Below, piece after piece: positions 4,674 to 45,224 of a DNA stretch of 64,000 nucleotides. Within the stretch, counting starts at the first letter, position 1. The number at the start of each line of letters is the position of its first letter. This DNA is from a virus. Under the pieces are notes generated by a model. It was given only the letters and a program-made list of their open reading frames with translations. It made no database searches and was not told the origin of the DNA. Position numbers and translations under genes: made by a program. The stretch lies in IMG/VR virus record IMGVR_UViG_3300017917_000601, positions 1 to 64,000 of that record. The stretch is one strand, 5' to 3'.

Positions 4674-5757
4674 CACTTCCGGTAATATTCTTTCCAGAAA
4701 CAATGTATGTGCCAGTTCCAGAAATTGCTGTGCCAGACCATGATACAGCTGATACTGAGCTTACAGAGTAGCTCGAAGGATAATTGCTAGACTGTCCATC
4801 AACTGCTGTAACTGTAATAATCAAATCATGTGTTACATTGGCTCCGCCAACTTCACTGCCAAACACTTTAATTTGGCTACCAACAGCGTACCCAGTTCCG
4901 CCTGTTCGAACTTTAACATCATAGGATCCGTTATTGTTAGTAACAGTGAACTGAGCACCTACACCATTGGCTTTAGGTGTAGTGTATGCAATTCTAAAAT
5001 ATTTAAAATCACCAACGGGTATATTTGTGTTGGCGTTTACGTCAGGAGTCCAAGTACCAGTAAAGTCTGTAAATGTTTGACTGTCAATAATAGTTGAGCC
5101 CTTCCATGCTTCGGCATTAAGCGTACTTTGTTTAGTAGCTTGTAACCAAATTGATCCAGTAAAGCCGGACATATTAACTGCAAAAGAATGACTAGCTGTA
5201 GGTATTGCTTCGTAATAGGTTACAGGGATAGCACTTGAACGATATGTAGGAATACCAGACAAATCAATTTCAGCTGTAAAGTCTGTAAACTCCCTAGAGC
5301 CACGCACCGTAGGAACGGCATCGCCTACTAGTTCTAAAACGCCAACTGCACCAAATCGTGTGTCAGCATACAGTATTGTGTCAGCACCGTTCTTAAGACA
5401 GGTAACGCTATATTTTAGATATTGTGGGGACAAACTTGCAAGATCGGTATCAGGAATAGTTACTGTTGCTAGGCCTTTGCCTGTAGTTGTTTGATTAGCG
5501 GCAGGTGTAACTGTATAAGGACTGTTTGGGAGTTTTTTGCCACTAGCATCCATAACGTTCATGCGAAGGTTAGTTAATGCGGTGAGGTCGATACGCTTTT
5601 GGTCGGCGTTCTTGATATCGAACTCTATAAGATTATCGATACCTTTATAAATTTTTAAATTTCTCTGATACACGTTAGTAAACTCCACGTTGAAAGTAGC
5701 CACATCTGCTAATAGCTCGATTCTATTTGGATATAAATATTGTGAGATTTTTTGCAT
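4651..5757 (-). CDS. Putative virion structural protein (beta-rich)
   Basis: Thr/Ser/Gly rich; contains the GxGY..G..I...G...GG....D module also seen in the giant tail proteins; CATAAATA upstream. Confidence 0.55.
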   Translation of the reverse strand: MQKISQYLYPNRIELLADVATFNVEFTNVYQRNLKIYKGIDNLIEFDIKNADQKRIDLTALTNLRMNVMDASGKKLPNSPYTVTPAANQTTTGKGLATVTIPDTDLASLSPQYLKYSVTCLKNGADTILYADTRFGAVGVLELVGDAVPTVRGSREFTDFTAEIDLSGIPTYRSSAIPVTYYEAIPTASHSFAVNMSGFTGSIWLQATKQSTLNAEAWKGSTIIDSQTFTDFTGTWTPDVNANTNIPVGDFKYFRIAYTTPKANGVGAQFTVTNNNGSYDVKVRTGGTGYAVGSQIKVFGSEVGGANVTHDLIITVTAVDGQSSNYPSSYSVSSVSAVSWSGTAISGTGTYIVSGKNITGSVDKITVS

Positions 5758-26783: not shown

Positions 26784-26856
26784 TATTTAGTGGAATTTGG
26801 CTTTTTGTGCCTGTAAAACATACCAAAAAGGGCACGTAAAAGGGCGGTTATAAATA
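26784..26856. promoter_or_regulatory. Divergent late promoters for sheath (-) and HNH gene (+)
   Basis: TAAATA on - at 26784-26789; TATAAATA on + at 26849-26856, 5 nt before ATG 26862. Confidence 0.65.
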
Positions 26857-27883: not shown

Positions 27884-28144
27884 TTATAGTTCAGTTGGCT
27901 GTGGCTTGGCCGCTTTTTCAGCTAAAGTTTCAATATCTGCATTTAACACAATATCTTCTTTAGACCCAGAAATCGTTTCGCCGGCTGCTAGCTTGCGTTG
28001 TATTTCCTGGGCAACTATTTCTTCAATTGCAATTCGACATCTTTCATGTACTGCATTATCGATCCAATCTTGAGCTGAGAGAGCAACTGCATGAAGAGCT
28101 TTATCTTCTGCATCGCTTAGTACTACTGTATATGTTTTTGACAT
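27884..28144 (-). CDS. Small protein closing the C1q cassette (possible fibre-tip accessory)
   Basis: AGGAG SD; last gene of the fibre operon. Confidence 0.7.
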   Translation of the reverse strand: MSKTYTVVLSDAEDKALHAVALSAQDWIDNAVHERCRIAIEEIVAQEIQRKLAAGETISGSKEDIVLNADIETLAEKAAKPQPTEL

Positions 28145-28159
28145 TTTTTAATCTCCTGT

Positions 28160-28687
28160 TTAAGCTAGAAGCCAGCCAGAAAAATGGCCTAGGCCTCCAC
28201 CCATGTAATAATCGCTTGAATAAGTTGTTTGGTCTCTGTAAATATATAGCTGAACGTAGTCATTAGCGGCCAAGGTTAAGATGCACGATGCTACCATCTG
28301 TTGGTGATAGTTTGTACCAATAGAATAACAATAAGCATTGCCCCTACCAGTTACTAAAGATCCGTTTTTAATCCAACCCCATTCACCGTTTGTAACTGAG
28401 CTAGCACTATTCGACCTGTATAAAACGCTTGCCTGAAACTCATATATACCTGCAATTGGCGCAGTAAATCTACCGTTTGAAGTATTATATCTAGAATTAT
28501 TGTTAGATATTGTTGCTGAAAAGGTTACAGCTCCAATTGATTGGCGTATGCCGCCTTCATAAGCCCACGCCGCCGGTACTTGATTAAAATTTACGTATCC
28601 GTTAGCATCTTGAGTTATTCCAGTCGACCCTGTATTAGCAATCGTTGTTGCTCCTGTTATTGTTGTATTTCCAAGAACTACTGGCAT
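28160..28687 (-). CDS. C1q/TNF-like domain protein (paralogue 3)
   Basis: AWAY...VTF...YNTSNGRFTAPIAGIYEF...LAANDYV...HFSGWLL. Confidence 0.85.
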   Translation of the reverse strand: MPVVLGNTTITGATTIANTGSTGITQDANGYVNFNQVPAAWAYEGGIRQSIGAVTFSATISNNNSRYNTSNGRFTAPIAGIYEFQASVLYRSNSASSVTNGEWGWIKNGSLVTGRGNAYCYSIGTNYHQQMVASCILTLAANDYVQLYIYRDQTTYSSDYYMGGGLGHFSGWLLA

Positions 28688-28691
28688 AGTA

Positions 28692-29225
28692 TTATCCTAT
28701 TAATTTTCCTTGAAAGTGCCCGAGGCCGCCTCCAAAATAATAATCAGTGCTTGCTGATATTACGTTACACCGCATATCAACTACGTCGCCTGCCGAAAGA
28801 CTTAACATGACTGTTGAGAAACAAGGAGTGTGACCGTTTGACGACGGATTTACTACATAAACAAATCCTCTAGTACCAATGTTAGATCCATTTAGGGCAA
28901 AGTACCATTCACCGTTACCGGTGACGCCGTTTGATCTAAACAATAAACTTCCGCAAAACTCATAGATACCCCCTGCGCCAGCGGGAACTGTAAATCTTCC
29001 TGTTGATGTATTATATCCGCTACCTCTGTTAATGTTTACGTTGTTAAAAGGAATTGCAGAGTTTGTAGTTGTTGTTGATGAACCATCATCGCTTCTATAA
29101 GCGTAAAAACACACCCTACTAGGGAATGTAACATAGCCACTGCCGTCAACATTTAGTCCGGCAGAGCTTGTGCCAGCGATTGCCGAAACTCCTGTAATAC
29201 TCGATGCTCCAAGTGTAATTGACAT
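28692..29225 (-). CDS. C1q/TNF-like domain protein (paralogue 2)
   Basis: CFYAY...IPFNNVNINRGSGYNTSTGRFTVP..GIYEF...LSAGDVV...HFQGKLI. Confidence 0.87.
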   Translation of the reverse strand: MSITLGASSITGVSAIAGTSSAGLNVDGSGYVTFPSRVCFYAYRSDDGSSTTTTNSAIPFNNVNINRGSGYNTSTGRFTVPAGAGGIYEFCGSLLFRSNGVTGNGEWYFALNGSNIGTRGFVYVVNPSSNGHTPCFSTVMLSLSAGDVVDMRCNVISASTDYYFGGGLGHFQGKLIG

Positions 29226-29228
29226 GTG

Positions 29229-29753
29229 TTATCCTAATAATTTTCCAGAAAAATGTCCAAGGTTTTCACCATAATAAAAGTCAGTACCAGAAGAAATAGT
29301 TATCAAACAAACACTTACATAATCGCCTGCGTTTAGGTAACGTATTTGCGTCCAATGTGTAGGTATATGTTCACTTGAATAAACTACGTGTGTGTAAGCT
29401 AGTCTGCCTTGGTTAACATTATTTACGGCAAAGCCAACTTCGCCATACCCGCCGCTACTAGAATGGCGTTGCAATACATGAGCATGAAATTGATAGTAGC
29501 CTGCTATAGGTGCAGTAAATCTACCAGTGCTAGTACTATAATGATTACCCCGATTGACTCTAGTATTGCTAAAAACTAACGCTGTAGTTGTCGTAGTAGT
29601 TGATACACCGCCTGAGGAGTACGCATAAAAGCAAGGAATATATGGTAATCTAGCATACCCAGAACTGTCGATAGTTATTCCAGCATTGCCGGTCCCGGCA
29701 ATACTAGTTGCACCAGATATAGTATCTGTAGATCCGTTAATTAACACCGGCAT
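29229..29753 (-). CDS. C1q/TNF-like domain protein (paralogue 1)
   Basis: CFYAY...LVFSNTRVNRGNHYSTSTGRFTAPIAGYYQF...LNAGDYV...HFSGKLL. Confidence 0.87.
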   Translation of the reverse strand: MPVLINGSTDTISGATSIAGTGNAGITIDSSGYARLPYIPCFYAYSSGGVSTTTTTTALVFSNTRVNRGNHYSTSTGRFTAPIAGYYQFHAHVLQRHSSSGGYGEVGFAVNNVNQGRLAYTHVVYSSEHIPTHWTQIRYLNAGDYVSVCLITISSGTDFYYGENLGHFSGKLLG

Positions 29754-32700
29754 TAGATTTTTCCTTTAAGATCATCAATTTGCTTTTGTTGTTCTTTAAT
29801 TGCTTCAACTAGTAAAGCAACGGTGTTTGCATACGCAAGAGATTTAATACCATTTTCATCTGTTACTACTAATTCAGGAATAATTGCTTCAACTTCTTGA
29901 GCAATCATACCCATTTCTCTATTACCGTTTGAAATACGATTATACATTACACCTCGAAGAGCAAGTGCTTTTTCTAAAGCGTTTTCTATAGTAGAAACGT
30001 TTGTTTTTAGTGTCGCATCAGAGTTTGATGTTATTGTTCCGGTGGCTGAGATGTTACCTTCAACAGTTATACCTGCCTTAAATGTAGCAACTCTAGTATT
30101 AGCAACTTCTAACCACGAGTTCATGCTTCCGTTAGTAGTGGCTGTTCTAGCAAAATACAATATACCGTTGCCAGTGGCCATGCCCATTGATGCATAAGTT
30201 GTAGTATCAGCTTTAATGCTAATACACGCTGTACTTAAAGACCACCCCGAAGTTCCATCTGACGCTTGGTGACCTAAAAATGCTCCGTTTGCGGCATCTT
30301 TAAGAACCACTGATTGGTTAGCTGTTGCATAATAAGCACCGCCACTTACTAGGTTAGTAACAGATAAAGATCCTAAAGTGCCAACACTGGTTAGACTTGA
30401 ACTTGTAACACCACTTCCTAAAGCAGTAGCACTTAAGACCGTTGTGTTATTAATTCTAAATGTTTTTCCAGTAGCAATACTTAGATCGTTATTAATTGTA
30501 GTTGTACCAGTTCCTGCGCCAATGCTAATTGCAGTGCCGGCGCCAAATGCGTTAACTGTTGTAGCGTTAGTATTAACAATATTAACAGTAGTTGAGCTAG
30601 AATTAACAGTTAAGTCGCCACCTCTAAATTCTAAGTCGCCTGCAACGACAGCATTGTTATTAATTGTAGTTGTACCAGTTCCTGCACCAATTGCAACGGC
30701 TGTAGCCGCACCACCAATATTTAAACCAGTGGCATTAGTGTTAAACAGCGGCACTGTACCAGTTTGTGAAGTAGTAATGCCGCCGCTTCCATTGGCGGCT
30801 ACAGTTCCGCTAACTGTTAAACTGGTCAATGTGCCAACACTTGTTAGGCTCGATGCCGTAACGCCGCTTCCTAATGTTGTAGCATTAAGAACACTAGTTC
30901 CGTCGACTAGATAACCAAAGGTACTAGCAACTCCAATGTTTTGATTTGCTGTAAATGCGTTAGTTGCATCGACCCAGTTAAAAGTTTTATTACCGTCGCC
31001 TGATTCAACAGTAATACCTGATCCGTCGGCGGCAGCATCGTTTATTGCTCCGCTACCTAACACAATATTTTTGTCGTCAACAGTTAATGTTGTTGAGTTA
31101 ATAGTTGTTGTAGTTCCGTCGACTTGCAAATTACCTTTAATTTGTACAGTTCCAGTATCATTACCTTCAGCCGCTGGATCAAGAATCAATGTGCTTGGGC
31201 CAATAACTTTATTAACATAAATTTTGTCATAAAGAATACTTGAAGTACCTAGTGTATAGAGATTGGTAACACTAGGAACAATGTTAGAACTAACTTGTGT
31301 AAAATAAGTTTTAACAGCTTGCTCAGTTGGAACTGCTAAATTACTGTTACCGCTTAAAGTTGCATCTGCAGAGAACTCGTTAATTTGTTCACCTAACTGA
31401 GCACCAATACTACCAAGTCTTAAACTTGTAAGACCAGATAAGTCGAACGCACTAGCATTAAGTGTTGCTCTACCAGTAGCTTGGTCAACTTTAAAGTATT
31501 CGCCAACTCTGAAGTTACCGTCTTGGTCAGTACTTACATAGAATACACGAGCTGGGAACAGTTCAATAACTTCATTGCCTTGGCTAGCCGCCTGGAAAGG
31601 AATTCCTGGATAGTTAGTAGTTGCTACGCCACCTGTACCAATACTTAAGAAGTCGTGCCCAGTTAATCGAATATTGGAATAATCATATCTAATTTTGACA
31701 CTAGTTCCGTCAACGCTTGGGATTGACTTTTCACCAGCTAGTACAATAGTTGTAACACTGCTACTGTTAGTCCAGCCGCTTACGCTTTGAATAACGTACG
31801 TGTTTGTATCACCGGTTGTAAATTCAATACTGCCGCCTGGACGAGGTTCAACTACAAATCCAGTAGCAATTAAAATAAATCCAGACTGGCCGGTAACTCC
31901 GCCTGTGGCAATTGCCGCAGATACTCCAAGACCGTTGCTAATAGTTTCACCAGCTGTAAATGGGCCACCGCTAGTTACTTTATAGTATATTTTTCTAGCC
32001 GAAGGTTGAACATTAGTAACAACCGCAACTGCTCCACTAGATTGCCCTGTAATGGTGTTGCCGACACTAAAACTTCCACCAGTTAAGCTGATTGCAGTGT
32101 ATTCTAACATGTCTCCGTATAGAGTACCGTTTAAGGTTGTTTCAGTTAAGTTTGTACCAGATGCTAATACTCCGTATGTTCCGTAACTGTTGTTACCGTT
32201 AAGTGCGCGAATCTTTCCGCCTCTTGTTGCCGCATAACCTGTATGACAGAAATATGTAAAGCAACTAACAATTTCGCTCTTGGCATTGTCTTTAACCCAG
32301 AATCCAACACCGCCGTCTAATATAACAGTGTATCCATGGAATACCATAGATTTTAATCCAGTTGCATGTACGCTTCCGTCTAATAATGCCCCAACAGATC
32401 CGGCAGATTTAGCACTACATTCAATAACGTATGGCGACTTTGTAGCGATCGGTGTTAACGGATCAAATGCAACATAAACTCCGCCGATAGTAGACTGGTC
32501 AATGTTTTGATCGTTTGGTGCGTAAGGCACATAACCAGTTAGTCCTTCAAACAACATCTTATTAAGAAGGGCACCATCGCCTAGTCTCCACATTGTTTGT
32601 TGCTCATATCCTGGTGCGGCTTTAACTGTTGTAGTTCTTTGGTTGTCTCCTACAACAGCAACAAAACTAGGAACTGTAATAGGTAATTGTTCTAGATAAA

Positions 32701-33157
32701 CACCTGATGCAACATAAATTGTTGCAGGTCCAACTGCTTGAGTACAGGCATGTTTAATTGTAGAGAATGCAGTTCCCCAAGACAATCCACTGTTAGCATC
32801 ACTGCCTGTAGGACTTACATAATAAATTTTTGTATTGACACCGTTGTCTTGCCAGGTTGGTACTCCGCTAACTACGGTTAACACCTGTCCAGATGACCCA
32901 ATGGGTAGTCTAGCATCTTGACTAGTTTCTCTATAAATTATGTCGCCCTTGGTGGTAGTTACTGTACTACCTTCTACCATTAGTTCAAACTTTGAAGAAT
33001 TTGTAGCCCAACTAGTTGCACTAGTATGGCCTACTATACAAGCATAGCTTGATCCGTTATAGCGAACTACATCGTCTTTGACGTAGGTTTGCCCAAGAGC
33101 CCATGCTCCTCTCCAGTTAAATTTAATTTTACCTAAATTAATTGATGTAATTGCCAT
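29753..33157 (-). CDS. Tail fibre protein with beta-helix region and C-terminal Peptidase_S74-type intramolecular chaperone
   Basis: Shared N-terminal module with the giant proteins; SSLTSVGTL repeats; NSDATLKTNV...GMIAQEVE...LVEAIKE. Confidence 0.85.
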   Translation of the reverse strand: MAITSINLGKIKFNWRGAWALGQTYVKDDVVRYNGSSYACIVGHTSATSWATNSSKFELMVEGSTVTTTKGDIIYRETSQDARLPIGSSGQVLTVVSGVPTWQDNGVNTKIYYVSPTGSDANSGLSWGTAFSTIKHACTQAVGPATIYVASGVYLEQLPITVPSFVAVVGDNQRTTTVKAAPGYEQQTMWRLGDGALLNKMLFEGLTGYVPYAPNDQNIDQSTIGGVYVAFDPLTPIATKSPYVIECSAKSAGSVGALLDGSVHATGLKSMVFHGYTVILDGGVGFWVKDNAKSEIVSCFTYFCHTGYAATRGGKIRALNGNNSYGTYGVLASGTNLTETTLNGTLYGDMLEYTAISLTGGSFSVGNTITGQSSGAVAVVTNVQPSARKIYYKVTSGGPFTAGETISNGLGVSAAIATGGVTGQSGFILIATGFVVEPRPGGSIEFTTGDTNTYVIQSVSGWTNSSSVTTIVLAGEKSIPSVDGTSVKIRYDYSNIRLTGHDFLSIGTGGVATTNYPGIPFQAASQGNEVIELFPARVFYVSTDQDGNFRVGEYFKVDQATGRATLNASAFDLSGLTSLRLGSIGAQLGEQINEFSADATLSGNSNLAVPTEQAVKTYFTQVSSNIVPSVTNLYTLGTSSILYDKIYVNKVIGPSTLILDPAAEGNDTGTVQIKGNLQVDGTTTTINSTTLTVDDKNIVLGSGAINDAAADGSGITVESGDGNKTFNWVDATNAFTANQNIGVASTFGYLVDGTSVLNATTLGSGVTASSLTSVGTLTSLTVSGTVAANGSGGITTSQTGTVPLFNTNATGLNIGGAATAVAIGAGTGTTTINNNAVVAGDLEFRGGDLTVNSSSTTVNIVNTNATTVNAFGAGTAISIGAGTGTTTINNDLSIATGKTFRINNTTVLSATALGSGVTSSSLTSVGTLGSLSVTNLVSGGAYYATANQSVVLKDAANGAFLGHQASDGTSGWSLSTACISIKADTTTYASMGMATGNGILYFARTATTNGSMNSWLEVANTRVATFKAGITVEGNISATGTITSNSDATLKTNVSTIENALEKALALRGVMYNRISNGNREMGMIAQEVEAIIPELVVTDENGIKSLAYANTVALLVEAIKEQQKQIDDLKGKI

Positions 33158-38430: not shown

Positions 38431-39216
38431 ATGTTTTTTAAAAAATCTACAATATACCTAGACTGTTATACAACCCAAACACATGTTTATGATCTATTCA
38501 AAATTGAATCGGCCAAAAAACACGTTCCTGATTGGTTTAGGGAGTTGCCTAACACGTTTGACGACCCTCGTTCGATAATTCCAATACCTACTGCAAAAAC
38601 TTGCTCAGGTATTGCTAGTTTTTTTAGAACTGGATTTATTATTCCATTATGGTCTGATGCTAAACTAGGTTATGCTCCTATACCCAACGGTTACACTACT
38701 ACTATTCAACCAGTTACACAGTTCTCTGATCAACTAACAAAGTGTCAGATACACGAACAAAAACAAATTGGCAAGGATTTTATGCCTGATAATCTCTATG
38801 CTCATTTTAAAATATTTTCCCCTTGGGTTTTTGAGTGTAGTGAAAATATCGACTGGCTGTGGTTGCAACCAACATATAACTTTAAAGAACCAGATAGCAT
38901 AACAGTCTTACCTGGTGTACTAGACTTTAAGTATAATTCAAATGTTTTTATTAATTTTAGCATAAGAAAAACCAGCCCGTCTAATTCACCTAACTTACTA
39001 AGTTTAGAAGCAGGACAACCGTTAGTTCATTTAGTTCCAATAACTGATAAAGAAGTTATTGTTAGAAATCACATTGTAACTGTTGACCAATGGAATAAGA
39101 TTTCTCAAAAAAATAACAGAGTATTCTTTTCTAATAATCACAACAAAAAACGAAAACTATTGCAGGAGCAAGAAGTTTTAAAAAGCAAGTGCCCTTTTGG
39201 ATTTAAAAAATTATGA
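38431..39216 (+). CDS. Hypothetical beta-rich protein heading the oxygenase cluster
   Basis: PDWF...TAKTC.GI...GFIIPLWSD...LPGVLD...AGQPLVHLVP; KCPF C-terminus; GAGGT SD. Confidence 0.65.
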   Translation: MFFKKSTIYLDCYTTQTHVYDLFKIESAKKHVPDWFRELPNTFDDPRSIIPIPTAKTCSGIASFFRTGFIIPLWSDAKLGYAPIPNGYTTTIQPVTQFSDQLTKCQIHEQKQIGKDFMPDNLYAHFKIFSPWVFECSENIDWLWLQPTYNFKEPDSITVLPGVLDFKYNSNVFINFSIRKTSPSNSPNLLSLEAGQPLVHLVPITDKEVIVRNHIVTVDQWNKISQKNNRVFFSNNHNKKRKLLQEQEVLKSKCPFGFKKL

Positions 39217-39758
39217 TAGCAGACCACGCATTTAGACCCAACGTTTATACACCTGAAGAGTGTGCAGAAATATGCCGACTCATGGAGGCAAACATCAATG
39301 TAGCGATACGAGATTTACCAAGCAAAGACTCAGTTAAAACTTCTAAAGTCGGCATGGTAGAATTTGGAAAAGTCAAAGATAAATTAGAAAAATTCAAAAA
39401 TATATGCCTCGACGGTAATAAACATTTATTTGGTTTTGATCTTTTTCAGTACACAGACCTAGAATATTTGATGTATAATGTCTACGACGTCGGTGGGGAA
39501 TACAGCTGGCACATTGATGGTAGCCGTGGAGAAATTAAAGATATTAAACTAACTGCACTACTTAATGTAAGTACTGAACCATATGAAGGCGGAGAATTAG
39601 AAGTATTCTTTAGTTCTAAACCAGAACCCATTACCCAATTTAGAGCGCCAGGATCATTTTTTATTTTCCCTAGCTGGATGCCACATCGGGTTACTCCAGT
39701 AACTAGTGGCCGTAGAACAACCATTACCTTATTTTTACAAGGCCCAAATTTTAGATAA
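39213..39758 (+). CDS. 2OG-Fe(II) oxygenase, prolyl-4-hydroxylase/PKHD-like
   Basis: YSWHID, KLT, YEGGEL, FPSWMPHRVTPVTSGRR. Confidence 0.92.
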   Translation: MIADHAFRPNVYTPEECAEICRLMEANINVAIRDLPSKDSVKTSKVGMVEFGKVKDKLEKFKNICLDGNKHLFGFDLFQYTDLEYLMYNVYDVGGEYSWHIDGSRGEIKDIKLTALLNVSTEPYEGGELEVFFSSKPEPITQFRAPGSFFIFPSWMPHRVTPVTSGRRTTITLFLQGPNFR

Positions 39759-39768
39759 AAGGATCAAT

Positions 39769-40362
39769 ATGAATATTCACAGCCTATTTCCACAACCAGT
39801 TGCTCAAGTTAATCTTAATAGAAAATTAACTGAAGAAGAGTACAACTGCATAATGACTCAAGAGTTAAGGCCAGATTTTGTAAATGCTATTAGTAATGAT
39901 TTTAAAGTATTGGATCGTCCAGAACTAAAACAAATCAAAGCGTTTTGTGAGTACTATACAAACATTTTCTTTGAAAAAGTATTTGATCCCATGACAGAGA
40001 TAAAACCACAGTTAACTCTTAGTTGGGTAAACTATAATAAAAAAGGTGATTGGTGTAACGAACACAATCATTCAAATAGCGTTATTAGTGGTGTATTTTA
40101 TGTACAGACCTACGACAATGATGCTATTATGTTTCATAATGAACCACAGTTTAGACAGCTATCTTGGTTAAATCGAGAAGACAATCCATGGAACGCTGAA
40201 ATGGCAATGTTTCCTGCAATCGAAGGCGACCTATTGTTGTTCAAATCTGATATGAAGCATCGAGTAGTACCAGTGCAACACGATAAAGTGCGTGTGAGTT
40301 TAGCGTTTAATGCATGGATCAGCGGTGATATTGGTGACGACTTGAGTGCTTTAAAACTCTAA
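39769..40362 (+). CDS. 2OG-Fe(II) oxygenase-like protein (HxH type; start MNIHSL)
   Basis: SWVN...HNHSNSVISGVFYV...GDLLLFKS..KHRV...RVSLAFN; AGGA SD. Confidence 0.88.
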   Translation: MNIHSLFPQPVAQVNLNRKLTEEEYNCIMTQELRPDFVNAISNDFKVLDRPELKQIKAFCEYYTNIFFEKVFDPMTEIKPQLTLSWVNYNKKGDWCNEHNHSNSVISGVFYVQTYDNDAIMFHNEPQFRQLSWLNREDNPWNAEMAMFPAIEGDLLLFKSDMKHRVVPVQHDKVRVSLAFNAWISGDIGDDLSALKL

Positions 40363-40371
40363 GGATCTATT

Positions 40372-40947
40372 ATGCAGATTTATGAAAATATATTACCTAA
40401 TGCGCTACTAAGAAAAGTACAAGACGTTGTATTACACGACGGAACACCGTGGCAGTTTACAACTACTACTAACCAATCTGCTACTGATAAGTTATACGGA
40501 TATAGTTGGGGGCATATTGCTTTGGATCAAAACGGCCCAAAAACTGCGGCAGCTGACGTATTACACACTGCGATTTTAATTGCTTTAGAAAACGCTGAAC
40601 AACCTGTCAAAGAAATTTATAGAATACGATTAGGTCTACTAACTGTTACACACGAACGTAGAGTAAACGATCCTCATATAGATATAGATGTTCCGCATAA
40701 AACTGGTTTAATCTATCTCAACGAAGCTGACGGCCCGACTATATTTTATGAAAACAAATATAACACTAGCAGTAGGCTAAAAGGCATGCAATATTTAGAA
40801 AAGGTAATAGGTGATAAGTTAAAAATTGCAGAAGAAGTTGATCCAGTAGTCAATCGAATGGTCATATTTGATGGATTAACTTATCACTCTAGCACTACGC
40901 CTACTACTGTTCCAAGGCGTGTTGTGTTAAACTTTAACTTTAATTAA
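40372..40947 (+). CDS. 2OG-Fe(II) oxygenase-like protein
   Basis: PHID...LIYLNEADGPT...NRMVIFDG..YHSS..P...RVVLNFN. Confidence 0.88.
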   Translation: MQIYENILPNALLRKVQDVVLHDGTPWQFTTTTNQSATDKLYGYSWGHIALDQNGPKTAAADVLHTAILIALENAEQPVKEIYRIRLGLLTVTHERRVNDPHIDIDVPHKTGLIYLNEADGPTIFYENKYNTSSRLKGMQYLEKVIGDKLKIAEEVDPVVNRMVIFDGLTYHSSTTPTTVPRRVVLNFNFN

Positions 40948-41422: not shown

Positions 41423-41463
41423 TATAAATAGCATTGTACTGCCTTCCCAAATAAAGATAAATA
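41423..41463 (+). promoter_or_regulatory. Tandem late promoters for the Cys-rich cassette
   Basis: TATAAATA at 41423-41430 and GATAAATA at 41456-41463, then GAGG SD. Confidence 0.65.
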
Positions 41464-41491: not shown

Positions 41492-42028
41492 ATGGCATCA
41501 TTGCAAAGTTCCACAGTTAGCGGAAACATTACAGCTAGCACCGGTGTTTATAAAGCTGGAGGCAACCAAACCCCATGGTATCGTATTCAGCATTGTGCTG
41601 ATGCTACTAGCACAAGCATTTGTAATCCAACTTATTCATGCGGTTGGTTACATATTAGAACACCGTTACCTGCTACAAACGCGGCTAGCGGTATTGGTTG
41701 GAATCCAAACATTGTAGAAGTCGTTGGTTTTCATACATACAGCGGTGAAGTTACTAGCGATTTTAAAGCTATTGTGAATAATAGCGGATACAGTGATAAT
41801 GCTTGGTACGGGAATCAAATTCGAGCAAATCAAAGTAACTATAGTAGTATGGTTGTTTATCAGTCATCTAACAACTACGGAGGTCTCAGACGTGTATGCA
41901 TTGCTGTTCCAAAGATAGGTTGTTGTTGCCAGGGGTGGATTTGGATACGCTGGTGGAATAACAGTGGCTATCGTGCTGACTTTGCTTGGGGAGTCGGTGC
42001 AAATAGTTCGAGCTCCTCAATATTTTAA
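41492..42028 (+). CDS. Cys/His-rich paralogue A (CCC motif), putative fibre-tip protein
   Basis: HC, LHIRTP, GW.P..EVVGFHTYSGE, YGG.RRVC, GCCCQG.IW.RW. Confidence 0.75.
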   Translation: MASLQSSTVSGNITASTGVYKAGGNQTPWYRIQHCADATSTSICNPTYSCGWLHIRTPLPATNAASGIGWNPNIVEVVGFHTYSGEVTSDFKAIVNNSGYSDNAWYGNQIRANQSNYSSMVVYQSSNNYGGLRRVCIAVPKIGCCCQGWIWIRWWNNSGYRADFAWGVGANSSSSSIF

Positions 42029-42037
42029 GGATATAAA

Positions 42038-42562
42038 ATGGCAAGTTTACAAGGAACGACAGTTAACGGATTACTGACAATAACAGGACAGACTGTTCTT
42101 GCAGGGAATTCAAATATTAGCCCATGGGTGCAATTAAGCCACTGTCCTACACAATACTCTGTAGCAAATAATAGATTACACGTAAGAACACCGATCCCGG
42201 GAAACGCAATGGGTTGGAATCCGTTTATTTTGGAAGTAGTTGGTTATCATACATATAGCGGTGAAGTTACAGAAGATTTTAAAGCTGTTATGAATGTTAA
42301 CGGTAGTCAAGGATCTCCTACTGGGTGGTACGGTAGTCAAATTTTTTCAAATAATGGTACAAACACAGCACCGTTTGTATATCTATCCAACAGTACATAC
42401 GGTGGTGAACATCGCGTATGTTTTTCAGTAAACATGGTTAGCTGTTGTTGTACTGGAAATATTTGGGTAAGATGGTTTAATGGTTCAAGTTATTGGAATA
42501 GTTTTGCTTGGGCAACTGCTTCGTCTAGCGATAGCCAGGCTAGTCCAGTTAAGCAATTTTAA
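42038..42562 (+). CDS. Cys/His-rich paralogue B (CCC motif)
   Basis: Same motif series; SCCCTG; AAGGA SD. Confidence 0.75.
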   Translation: MASLQGTTVNGLLTITGQTVLAGNSNISPWVQLSHCPTQYSVANNRLHVRTPIPGNAMGWNPFILEVVGYHTYSGEVTEDFKAVMNVNGSQGSPTGWYGSQIFSNNGTNTAPFVYLSNSTYGGEHRVCFSVNMVSCCCTGNIWVRWFNGSSYWNSFAWATASSSDSQASPVKQF

Positions 42563-42577
42563 AGAGATAAGTACAAC

Positions 42578-43123
42578 ATGGCAACATTTAACGTAAACAC
42601 AACAATTAATGGAGACTTTACTAGTTCAACTGCTATTTTAGACGGACAAAGTGACATGACTGAGTGGTATCAGCTCAATCATTGTGTTTGTCCAAGTAGT
42701 GACGGGACTAGTGACTGTATTGGTAACGGTAGACCATATCTGCATGTTAGAACACCAATACCTGCAGACGAGTCTGCAGGTGTAGGTTGGGGGCCTTACA
42801 TTTTAGAAGTAGTTGGATATCACAGCTACTCAGGAGAGAGATGGCACGATTTTAAAGCTATTGTAAACACAACCGGTGATGGTACAAATTCTTGGTACGG
42901 AAGCCAAGTCCGTGTTAATACTGGTAATGCTAGTTCTGAACCGTTTGTGTATAGATCTTCAAGCACTTATGGCGGATTTAGACGTATGTGTTTTGCTATT
43001 GGTAAAATTAGCTGTTGCTGTACTGGAAACCTATGGGTTCGTATTTGGACTAACAGTGGGTTTAGAGCTAGTTTTCCATGGGCTACAGAAACTGCTAATA
43101 CAAACAGCACACTAAGATTTTAA
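42578..43123 (+). CDS. Cys/His-rich paralogue C (CCC motif)
   Basis: Same motif series; SCCCTG; GATAAGTA 4 nt before the ATG. Confidence 0.75.
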   Translation: MATFNVNTTINGDFTSSTAILDGQSDMTEWYQLNHCVCPSSDGTSDCIGNGRPYLHVRTPIPADESAGVGWGPYILEVVGYHSYSGERWHDFKAIVNTTGDGTNSWYGSQVRVNTGNASSEPFVYRSSSTYGGFRRMCFAIGKISCCCTGNLWVRIWTNSGFRASFPWATETANTNSTLRF

Positions 43124-43135
43124 AGGAAAAAGATT

Positions 43136-43534
43136 ATGTATCATTACAGATGGCAAATTGCTAGAGTTGATGGATTTCAGCAACACCCCGAGTTAACATT
43201 AGAAAATGTTATTGCTGAAGTATATTGGGAATTAGAAGTAAGAGACACAAGTGACATGAGTGTTCATTACATTCGTGCAATGACTAAACTTCCAGATCCT
43301 ACACCAAACGATTTTACTGATTATATTGATTTAAATCATACCGATATTTTATCAATGGTATGGTCAGTCGAAGGCGGTAGAGAAGCACTTGAACAGAGAG
43401 CTAAACAAGAGCTAGATGAATTAAGAAATCCTGCTACAAAGATTCAAACATTACCAAAACACTGGTTAGCAGATTGCTGTCCAGATGGTACAAATATTGA
43501 TTTAGCCGGAGCAGTTAGTTCTTCCGAAGGTTAA
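43136..43534 (+). CDS. Acidic fibre-associated accessory protein
   Basis: W.I..VD...V.W...F.DY.DL...W...NP pattern resembling small proteins that follow fibre genes; C-terminal DCCP; AAGGA SD. Confidence 0.55.
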   Translation: MYHYRWQIARVDGFQQHPELTLENVIAEVYWELEVRDTSDMSVHYIRAMTKLPDPTPNDFTDYIDLNHTDILSMVWSVEGGREALEQRAKQELDELRNPATKIQTLPKHWLADCCPDGTNIDLAGAVSSSEG

Positions 43535-43536
43535 GC

Positions 43537-43764
43537 ATGAGTTTAAAAGATACAGTTACACATTTTAAAGATATCGTTGTAAAAGCTGGTCAAACACTTG
43601 ACGAAGCAATTGAAGAAAATCGCAAGCAGGGAAAAATTAAATTAGACATCTGCAAACAATGCGAAAACTTTAATATGTCTACGAGATTTTGTGGAATATG
43701 TCATTGCTTTATGCCAGCAAAAACTCGAATACCAGGAATGAAATGTCCAATTGACAAGTGGTAA
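43537..43764 (+). CDS. Small six-Cys putative metal-binding protein
   Basis: ICKQC...CGICHCF..AKT....CPIDKW. Confidence 0.75.
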   Translation: MSLKDTVTHFKDIVVKAGQTLDEAIEENRKQGKIKLDICKQCENFNMSTRFCGICHCFMPAKTRIPGMKCPIDKW

Positions 43765-43790
43765 AAAAAAGGGCTCTAAGAGCCCTTTTT
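43763..43790. terminator. Bidirectional intrinsic terminator
   Basis: AAAAAGGGCTC-TAA-GAGCCCTTTTT between convergent genes. Confidence 0.88.
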
Positions 43791-43802: not shown

Positions 43803-45224
43803 TTATTTTCTTAAACTATCAATTTCAGCTTTTAATGATTTAACAGCTTCGATCAAATAAGCAGTAAGTCTGTTATAACAAACTCCATCTGGCTTACCGT
43901 CTTTTAACTGCACCAAGTTGGGTAAAACTTCGTAAACTTGTTCAGCAATAAGTCCTGCTTCGTTCTTATTATCTGAACCTGCTGTACGATCGTATGTAAC
44001 ACCGTTTAACATTAAAATCTTGTCTAGAGCATCCATAATTGGGTTAACATTCTCTTTGTAAGCAATACTTGAGTTTTCAGTAATTGTTCCAGAGAATGTA
44101 GCGTTACCGTTATTAGCCAGTGTTAATGCGTTAATACCGTTAGTTGACCAAGAGCCGCCAGATGCATTATTAGTTGCATTAACCCAAAATCTTAAAGAAC
44201 CACCAGTATTAGTATTACCAGCAACGATTTCGTTGTTACCGTTATTGCCTAATTGTAGTACGTTCCAGCTTAGGCCTGCTGAATAGCTATCGCTACTGTC
44301 ATATCTTGCCTTAATTGTGTTGCCGCTAGCTACAGTTAATGCGCCAGCAACACTAGTTGCACCGGTAATTGATGCTCCGCCACTTGCTACTGTTAGGCCG
44401 CCAGTGATGTTTGCACCACCAGTACTAACTGTTAACTGACCACCAATTGTGCTTGCCGCGCCAGTAAACAAGTTTCCACTAATACCAACGCCGCCAGTGA
44501 CTACTAACGTGCCAGAGGTAGAATTAGTTGCCGCGGTTCCTGCAGTAAATGTTGTTGCCGCATTAGATGTTAATGTAGTAAATGCACCAGTGCCGCGTGT
44601 GGTAGCACCAATGTTCATACCATTAATGTTACCTGCGGTTGCTGATGTAATAGTAATTGTACCAGCACCAGTTGTTGTGATACTTTGATTGTTAGTACCA
44701 GTGTCTAAGTTAACTGCACCGTTAGCGGCTAAAGTAGTAAATGCACCAGTGCCGCGTGTAGTAGCACCAATGTTCATTCTATTGATGTTACCAGCAGTTC
44801 CTGGGTTAATTGTAACAGTACCAGTTCCAGTTGGTTGGAAACTAAATGTTGCGTTTGTTCCATTAGCAGTAATATTACCTGTTACGGTTAAGTCTGAAAT
44901 GTTTGCCGCGCCACCGTTTTGACTTACAATAATATAATCAGTTCCATCAGAAGCTAGTGTAATACTAGTTCCTGTACCAACTGTTTGTGTGCTAGTTCCT
45001 GATGAGCCGTTGCCGCGAAATACACCACTCGGAGATGATAGAGTTATATTACCGCTGGCAGCATTGAAGAAACTTTGAGACACACCGCTAATTAAAGTTG
45101 GGTTAGGAACTGTAACTGTATAACTAGTTCCTGTAAACTTTGTAAAAACACCTTCACCCGGCGTAACTTGTGTAGTTGTCGTAGTGGTCGATGCTGTTTG
45201 TAGTACGGTATTATAACGTGCCAT
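43803..45224 (-). CDS. Tail fibre protein with C-terminal Peptidase_S74-type chaperone
   Basis: Thr/Gly-rich repeats; NSSIAYKENV...GVTY...GLIAEQV...YNRLTAYLIEAVKSL. Confidence 0.82.
   Translation of the reverse strand: MARYNTVLQTASTTTTTTQVTPGEGVFTKFTGTSYTVTVPNPTLISGVSQSFFNAASGNITLSSPSGVFRGNGSSGTSTQTVGTGTSITLASDGTDYIIVSQNGGAANISDLTVTGNITANGTNATFSFQPTGTGTVTINPGTAGNINRMNIGATTRGTGAFTTLAANGAVNLDTGTNNQSITTTGAGTITITSATAGNINGMNIGATTRGTGAFTTLTSNAATTFTAGTAATNSTSGTLVVTGGVGISGNLFTGAASTIGGQLTVSTGGANITGGLTVASGGASITGATSVAGALTVASGNTIKARYDSSDSYSAGLSWNVLQLGNNGNNEIVAGNTNTGGSLRFWVNATNNASGGSWSTNGINALTLANNGNATFSGTITENSSIAYKENVNPIMDALDKILMLNGVTYDRTAGSDNKNEAGLIAEQVYEVLPNLVQLKDGKPDGVCYNRLTAYLIEAVKSLKAEIDSLRK
44575..44777. 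repeat. 44-nt direct repeat (1 mismatch), 159-nt period
   Basis: 44575-44618 vs 44734-44777, encoding MNIGATTRGTGAFTT. Confidence 0.9.

Follow-up and report, generated by a model that had tools for sequence, protein, structure and literature searches.

A five-gene cassette with three tandem paralogs

We analyzed a 64,000-nucleotide stretch of viral DNA (positions 1 to 64,000 of IMG/VR record IMGVR_UViG_3300017917_000601, hereafter the window) that carries on its plus strand a compact cassette of five genes, the first three of which are tandem paralogs, here called A, B and C. The paralogs share a domain marked by a CCCxGx(I/L)WxR motif, referred to below as the CCC domain, which very probably forms the distal head, or tip, of phage tail fibers. 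At a probability of roughly 55%, we further propose that the cassette is a tail-fiber tip module in which A, B and C would form a mixed three-chain knob that docks on a fiber cleaved by its own Peptidase_S74 (S74) chaperone. The source record, an IMG/VR fragment, measures 76.9 kb and has an estimated completeness of 20%. For its tail completion protein, the closest counterparts are found in jumbo phages such as PA5oct and Phosso (34-37% identity), which makes an uncultured jumbo myovirus the probable source. The features of the locus are as follows, with protein lengths in amino acids (aa) and distances in nucleotides (nt).

41423-41430, plus strand: TATAAATA box, candidate T4-type late promoter by position only, 62 nt upstream of gene A
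41492-42028, plus strand: predicted CCC-head paralog A, 178 aa; groups with position-A sequences (two label changes for A on the tree); profile E 1.4e-75
42038-42562, plus strand: predicted CCC-head paralog B, 174 aa; modeled with AlphaFold2 as a 10-strand β-sandwich (predicted local distance difference test, pLDDT, 83; predicted template modeling score, pTM, 0.79)
42578-43123, plus strand: predicted CCC-head paralog C, 181 aa; the best conserved of the trio, with additional Cys (HCxC...SDC)
43136-43534, plus strand: DUF7936 protein (Pfam PF25590), 132 aa; its C-terminal tail W..DCCPDG is specific to the cassette
43537-43764, plus strand: six-Cys mini-protein, 75 aa, DUF6171-like (PF19668 / phrog_13558)
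43766-43790, no strand assigned: G+C-rich hairpin with T/A runs on either side, found by scan; putative terminator common to the convergent cassette and fiber gene
43803-45224, minus strand: tail fiber, 473 aa, with a C-terminal Peptidase_S74 intramolecular chaperone (PF13884; tail-fiber PHROGs)

Inspection of the open reading frames (ORFs) in the window confirms the arrangement given in a preliminary description of this DNA, namely three tandem paralogs followed by a 132-aa and a 75-aa Cys-containing protein. The five ORFs are separated by gaps of just 2-15 nt, and purine-rich stretches resembling ribosome-binding sites (GAGG, AGGA and AAGG, with GAGA for C) lie ahead of their starts.

The CCC domain belongs to no named family

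Alignment of the three paralogs gives 49% identity to A and 58 invariant columns. Because the trio recurs in 20 distinct loci, this paralogy lies far beyond chance. The shared motifs LH(I/V)RTP, GWxP, EVVG(F/Y)H(T/S)YSGE, YGGxxRxC and CCCxGx(I/L)WxR were all present as first reported. A further motif given as W-x3-HC has an actual spacing of W-x4-HC. The reported likeness between the paralog N-termini and the last shaft strand of the fiber is visible (TVSGNITAS in A, TFSGTITEN in the fiber), but these segments are of simple composition.

The preliminary description did not recognize the domain, and it indeed proves to be undescribed. No Pfam (E up to 1), PHROG or NCBIfam family was found for A, B or C, the sole partial exception being a weak match of B to a tail PHROG (E 0.008). 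The same Pfam search returned no match in any of the three to the tail collar domain PF07484 or to the gp38 adhesin profiles PF05268 and PF21721. In 50,697 cultured or deposited phage records, no match was found for the cassette by blastn or for B, C and the 132-aa protein by tblastn; at the sensitivity of these searches, the CCC domain is absent from cultured phages. Its relatives come from metagenomes only. A word-indexed search gathered them into 41 clusters, and 29 cluster representatives with the domain came out of an exhaustive profile search that covered 1.84 billion representatives.

The CCC domain terminates fibers and collagen repeats

Domain architecture is the strongest evidence that the CCC domain is a head domain. 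The profile search placed it at the extreme C-terminus of six longer chains: P0064 (1165 aa), P0055, P0056, P0057, P0058 and P0059. The N-terminal parts of P0064, P0058 and P0056 match tail-fiber PHROGs, and the shaft of P0058 matches fibers of cultured Synechococcus, Pelagibacter and Thermus phages, where its last 130 residues match nothing. P0057 is built differently, with a signal-peptide-like N-terminus followed by Pfam Collagen repeats (6.5e-19) and then the CCC domain. A globular domain that ends a collagen triple helix or a phage fiber is expected to be a trimeric head, as in C1q, collagen VIII/X and BclA, and by analogy the CCC domain may be trimeric as well. Its position at the end of both tail-fiber proteins and a bacterial collagen-repeat protein is the basis on which we regard it as very probably a distal head domain. 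The fiber-tip placement put forward in the preliminary description is thus supported by the C-terminal fusions, along with the position of the trio behind S74 fiber genes described below.

P0057 is encoded in a bacterial metagenome-assembled genome. On the contig in question (CAZELM010000022.1, 4128-5552, locus L038), the protein spans 474 aa and consists of a signal-peptide-like N-terminus, about 40 collagen G-P-Q triplets and a C-terminal CCC head. The neighbors of this collagen-repeat gene are glycosyltransferase-like genes. Judging from this bacterial protein, the CCC domain is also used outside phages.

Copy number and gene order are conserved across loci

We compared 32 loci retrieved from IMG/VR and JGI metagenome scans that were searched with profiles of our own making. 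Wherever the array was uncut by a contig end, exactly three tandem copies were present, which held for all 20 distinct trios once duplicates were removed. Of 19 distinct arrangements, 17 have an S74 fiber gene directly upstream of the trio on the same strand, with stop and start codons abutting or overlapping. The two that deviate are L016, on a contig that begins shortly ahead of the trio, and the arrangement of the window and its near relative (L001/L006). In this latter arrangement, the S74 fiber stands on the other side of the cassette in convergent orientation, which points to a local inversion.

The paralogs also retain their positions. A tree of 60 paralog proteins requires three changes of positional label, compared with a minimum of two and a shuffled mean of 28.7, and none of 200 shuffles was as low. 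This tree indicates an old triplication whose A-B-C order has persisted. Copy number had been named beforehand as a point on which a mixed tip could fail, and it is constant at three in all 20 complete arrays, with position-specific orthologs. This contrasts with C1q-domain tip genes in 80 other viral loci, which are present in 1 to 4 copies, mostly 1, as counted with a profile built from three sequences that may miss copies.

The exception on the positional tree is the B protein of L007 (2212-2748; an identical copy occurs in L008). Its N-terminus and middle are B-like, and its HCVCPSSDGTSDC loop and C-terminal end match those of the neighboring C. This composition suggests a B/C mosaic that arose by gene conversion within the trio.

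Further genes follow the cassette in several relatives. Behind it in L002 (1253-8378), L007 (3924 onward), L012 and L030 are arrays of two or three additional fiber genes, all of whose products begin MARYNTS..., comparable to MARYNTV... in the 473-aa fiber of the window. Some of these genes are followed in turn by short DUF7936-like genes lacking the CC tail. The common MARYNT-type N-terminus suggests alternative fibers for one attachment site. In L004 (4612-11200) and L005 (4650-11708), a protein of 2200-2350 aa comes directly after the DUF7936 gene. It contains a highly repetitive stretch near its start, visible as repeat-like overlapping ORFs, and DUF6171-like and short DUF7936-like genes appear only after it (L005, 11701-12282).

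The S74 fiber beside the cassette is the likely partner of the trio

The 473-aa fiber matches PF13884 (Peptidase_S74) over residues 385-438 with an E-value of 2.6e-10 and a score of 40.9 bits against a cut-off of 22. From what the S74 family is known for, the fiber would cleave itself and release the chaperone. Its C-terminal 96 residues are 44-62% identical to fibers that directly precede the trio in other loci, compared with 39% to the S74 fiber linked to C1q genes in its own genome. A truncated fragment from L013 gave 33% over 66 residues. Since the fiber end is nearer to the trio-preceding fibers than to the other S74 fiber of the same genome, the 473-aa protein is likely the partner of the trio. 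A junction of the form GT(I/L)TE(N/S)SS-I.(Y/L)KEN is conserved in the fibers.

The modeled head is a β-sandwich with sub-threshold fiber-end neighbors

Paralog B was modeled with AlphaFold2 from a 61-sequence alignment, with the confidence scores listed above. The model describes a ten-strand β-sandwich in which residues 1-20 are of low confidence. A Foldseek search against the PDB returned nothing at E 0.001 or better. In a full VIA scan, the nearest structures were C-terminal domains of Acinetobacter and Klebsiella phage tailspikes and fibers, such as Fri1 gp49 (PDB 6c72), along with the carbohydrate-binding modules CBM35 and CBM6, at Z 4.3-6.4; the best value of 6.4 lies below the level of about 7-8 that the tool treats as meaningful. 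These neighbors aligned over 92-121 residues. Domains of the Fri1 gp49 type occupy the far end of a trimeric receptor-binding protein, as proposed for the CCC head. Identity to these domains and to the CBM modules is only 4-12% at such sub-threshold Z-scores, and the CCC and His motifs are missing from them. Matches of the B model in BFVD were likewise weak and mostly to tail and fiber proteins. The structural neighbors thus fit a fiber-end domain but are no proof alone. Despite the ten strands of the model, its 50 best VIA neighbors included no C1q or TNF chain.

Inspection of the alignment reveals conserved His and Cys residues that, in B numbering, are His35, Cys36, His48, His71, Cys128 and Cys136-138; His35, Cys36, His71 and Cys136-138 are referred to below as the His/Cys cluster. 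In an 11-member subclade of B, Cys36 and the whole CCC triplet have disappeared jointly, plus His35 and His71 where alignable, and His48 and Cys128 are retained. One member, L011_B, keeps His71 and has a gap at positions 35-36. An independent loss is seen in the fused protein P0051, where His35, Cys36 and His71 are gone and only the middle Cys of the CCC motif is kept. The middle Cys is also the only one of the three left in L028_B, L020_A and P0067. Cys128 is missing from P0055, P0056, P0057, P0066 and the C proteins of four loci. Because His residues are lost together with Cys, a metal site is weakly favored over disulfides alone, and the restriction of the loss to B argues for an intrasubunit site that is dispensable to the fold. 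We treat this putative metal site as a lead and not as a result.

Accessory genes of the cassette

The 132-aa protein belongs to DUF7936 (PF25590, 42.4 bits against a gathering cut-off of 27). A search for relatives found 2249, mostly of 97-104 aa, and all listed ones carry PF25590. Wherever a locus extends beyond the trio, the trio is followed by a DUF7936 gene. The cassette-linked copies all have an additional tail of the form W..(C/N)CC(P/A)(D/E/S)G, which is missing in four copies beside other fibers. The protein had been described as ending in DCCP; this motif in fact sits 19-22 residues before the C-terminus. In cultured phages, a DUF7936 member comes directly after a 715-aa structural protein (Roseobacter phage CRP-5) or lies within the tail-fiber region (Synechococcus phage MA01). 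The AlphaFold2 model (pLDDT 83.6) has three long strands and two helices, with the tail disordered. Foldseek searches of the PDB with this model found no match at E 0.001 or better, nor any below E 0.3, and the best VIA hits (LptE, Z 5.1; a SecB-like chaperone, Z 4.7) are all below the meaningful level. DUF7936 is a fiber-module family, and from position only we infer that the 132-aa protein may help in tip assembly or act as an adaptor.

The 75-aa protein has the six Cys residues reported earlier. It scores 26.7 bits with PF19668 (DUF6171), where the gathering cut-off is 27, and matches phrog_13558 at 4.9e-13; atlas clusters of DUF6171 score 0.92, and one tblastn match is annotated DUF6171. 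A DUF6171-like gene comes after the DUF7936 gene in about 14 of 19 loci that continue. Relatives of the 75-aa protein occur in 73 cultured phage records, siphoviruses included, and in the two records examined (S-RIM4 and Marzo) their neighbors are small genes, with the fiber genes located elsewhere. The 75-aa protein is therefore not a dedicated partner of the CCC domain, and we rejected it as a dedicated metal loader. The dedicated metal-loading factors of the preliminary description accordingly give way to a DUF6171-like protein whose family occurs in many phages outside fiber modules and a member of the general DUF7936 family, though the latter has its cassette-specific CC tail. A full-text literature search for DUF7936 and DUF6171 returned no paper.

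Parallels with known tips and a second trio in the same genome

The closest precedent for the arrangement is the virophage DSLV2, in which three consecutive tail proteins with the collar domain (PF07484) co-purify as a heterotrimer, and AlphaFold3 favors the heterotrimer as well (PMC12724248). In DSLV2 and related Synechococcus phages, these are three same-strand paralogs of about 200 aa that are conserved in number and order and grouped by gene position, and the trio was read as one mixed trimeric receptor-binding tip (J Virol 2025, PMC12724248). The CCC trio resembles that of DSLV2 in having three consecutive same-strand paralogs of fixed number that group by position within a tight operon. 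It differs in lacking PF07484, in its modeled compact β-sandwich, in being tied to an S74 fiber and a DUF7936 gene, and in its His/Cys cluster.

A second trio lies in the same genome. At 28160-29753 on the minus strand, three tandem paralogs of 174-177 aa score 34.8-42.9 bits with C1q (PF00386), where the cut-off is 23.7, and they come immediately after the other S74 fiber gene (29753-33157, minus strand). An 86-aa ORF without a family follows them, so that trio and ORF form a block at 27884-29753 on the minus strand. Three tandem genes directly behind an S74 fiber are also the arrangement of the CCC trio in most loci. Like the modeled CCC head, C1q heads are β-sandwiches of roughly 130-150 residues that end a collagen-like or fiber stalk, and the placement after collagen repeats is shared as well (P0057). 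In animals, C1q is itself a heterotrimer of A, B and C chains from three tandem genes. Comparison of the CCC family with the C1q trio by hhalign nonetheless detected no relation (probability 0.3%), and PF00386 did not match the CCC domain. Sequence gives no support to the idea of a disguised C1q.

Another familiar tip is gp38 of the T2/T6/S16 type, a small separate adhesin on the tip of the gp37 long tail fiber that determines receptor specificity and is encoded just after the distal fiber gene. Unlike the CCC trio, with its three paralogs and S74 fiber, gp38 is the product of a single gene, belongs to PF05268/PF21721 and adopts a polyglycine sandwich fold.

A mixed three-chain tip weighed against its alternatives

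The mechanism that we propose joins these observations in one assembly. Each paralog would consist of a β-sandwich head of about 150 residues after about 25 residues that resemble one fiber-shaft strand, and A, B and C would combine 1:1:1 into one mixed trimeric knob. The 473-aa fiber would fold with its C-terminal S74 chaperone and then cut the chaperone off, whereupon the knob would dock through its three N-terminal strands onto the new fiber end. The outcome for the phage would be a receptor-binding face of three different subunits. His35, Cys36, His71 and Cys136-138 would make up a metal site within each subunit or, with lower probability, a site of disulfides, and the DUF7936 protein may act as an assembly aid or as a link between knob and fiber. 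Gene number, gene order and the 2025 virophage precedent are what suggest that A, B and C form a mixed trimer, for which we see slightly better than even odds.

Several observations weigh against this proposal. The fused homologs, if trimeric like other fibers and collagen repeats, would carry three identical heads, so the CCC domain is presumably able to homotrimerize. The B/C mosaic of L007 implies some interchangeability of subunits. The fibers retain a small β-rich region before the S74 domain, which could itself be the tip, and fiber and cassette are not co-transcribed in the window. The joint loss of His and Cys represents just two independent events, and the domain is found in no cultured phage.

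The best of the alternatives, though in our view an unlikely one, is that A, B and C are each homotrimeric and serve as alternative heads that compete for one fiber end or cap different fibers, giving the phage several receptor specificities. The identical heads expected of the fused homologs, if these are trimeric, would agree with this, as would the inter-strand loops, which differ strongly among A, B and C, and several alternative receptor-binding proteins are often present in one phage. One would expect heads of this kind to come in varying numbers and to turn over, yet exactly three are found in every one of the 20 distinct loci and their fixed order is ancient, in contrast to the C1q tip genes with their variable copies. 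The loss of the His/Cys cluster in B only suggests, moreover, that the subunits play different roles within one unit.

It is less probable again that the trio forms a short appendage separate from the S74 fiber, for example on the baseplate or on another giant fiber, and that proximity reflects shared late expression. The convergent transcription units of cassette and fiber in the window and L001 would be natural under such an arrangement, as would the retained β-rich region, and no covariation between fiber ends and trio N-termini was seen by eye. It is harder to reconcile with a trio that abuts or overlaps the S74 fiber stop codon in 17 of 19 distinct arrangements and whose N-termini, besides resembling the last shaft strand, align with shaft sequence in the fused forms. 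Most improbable is that the trio and the DUF7936 protein are fiber-folding helpers absent from the finished particle, for although tail-fiber assembly genes usually sit just after the fiber gene and DUF7936 members come after fiber-like genes in cultured phages, these fibers already have their own S74 chaperone and the CCC domain is a permanent C-terminal part of fiber and collagen-repeat proteins.

The proposal of a mixed three-chain tip could be extended, in a form that we offer as speculation and consider doubtful, to S74 fibers that would serve in general for the docking of mixed three-chain heads, which would be exchangeable and unrelated in fold (CCC here, C1q in the same genome and collar-type elsewhere). 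Under this extension, the CCC head would represent a novel fold for binding metal, with one His/Cys site per subunit, completed or loaded by the CC tail of the DUF7936 protein, and one fiber would display three receptor-binding faces.

Regulatory elements and neighboring genes

The cassette had been credited with its own late promoter and terminator. The terminator is borne out by the hairpin at 43766-43790 between the convergent genes. The TATAAATA octamer occurs four times in the window, compared with 7.2 occurrences expected from shuffles, and with no enrichment the promoter assignment is one of position; we no longer count the octamer as statistical evidence of a late promoter. All three plus-strand copies (5732-5739, 26849-26856 and 41423-41430) lie 6-62 nt upstream of plus-strand ORF starts, at 5752, 26862 and 41492. 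Most of the minus-strand structural genes must use a late motif other than TATAAATA.

Just upstream of the cassette, a plus-strand operon at 38431-40947 encodes a 261-aa protein without a family and three proteins of the 2OG-Fe(II) oxygenase type, which match PF13640 and PF13759, the third match being weak. The near relative L001 holds the same block, with additional oxygenase-like genes. More distant loci are without the block, and its link to the cassette is therefore local.

Implications for phage host recognition

Phage fibers and tips are usually described as homotrimers. To our knowledge, the experimental demonstration of a mixed three-chain tip dates only from 2025 and concerns a single domain family in a virophage. 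The three-gene mixed fiber tip is thus a known concept, and what is new here is the CCC domain family, its fixed link to S74 fibers and DUF7936, and its bacterial collagen-linked relatives. The cassette displays the genomic signature of the DSLV2 type, a fixed number of three in an ancient positional order, for an unrelated and unnamed domain. The link to S74 suggests a logic for this arrangement, in that a fiber that loses its C-terminus after folding must be given a distal head in trans, and a head with a gene of its own would be free to triplicate and diversify. If the proposal is true, the CCC proteins would constitute a new host-recognition protein family in abundant uncultured aquatic phages and the second or third case of a heterotrimeric phage tip, and the cassette would be available to host-range studies as a compact module of three genes.

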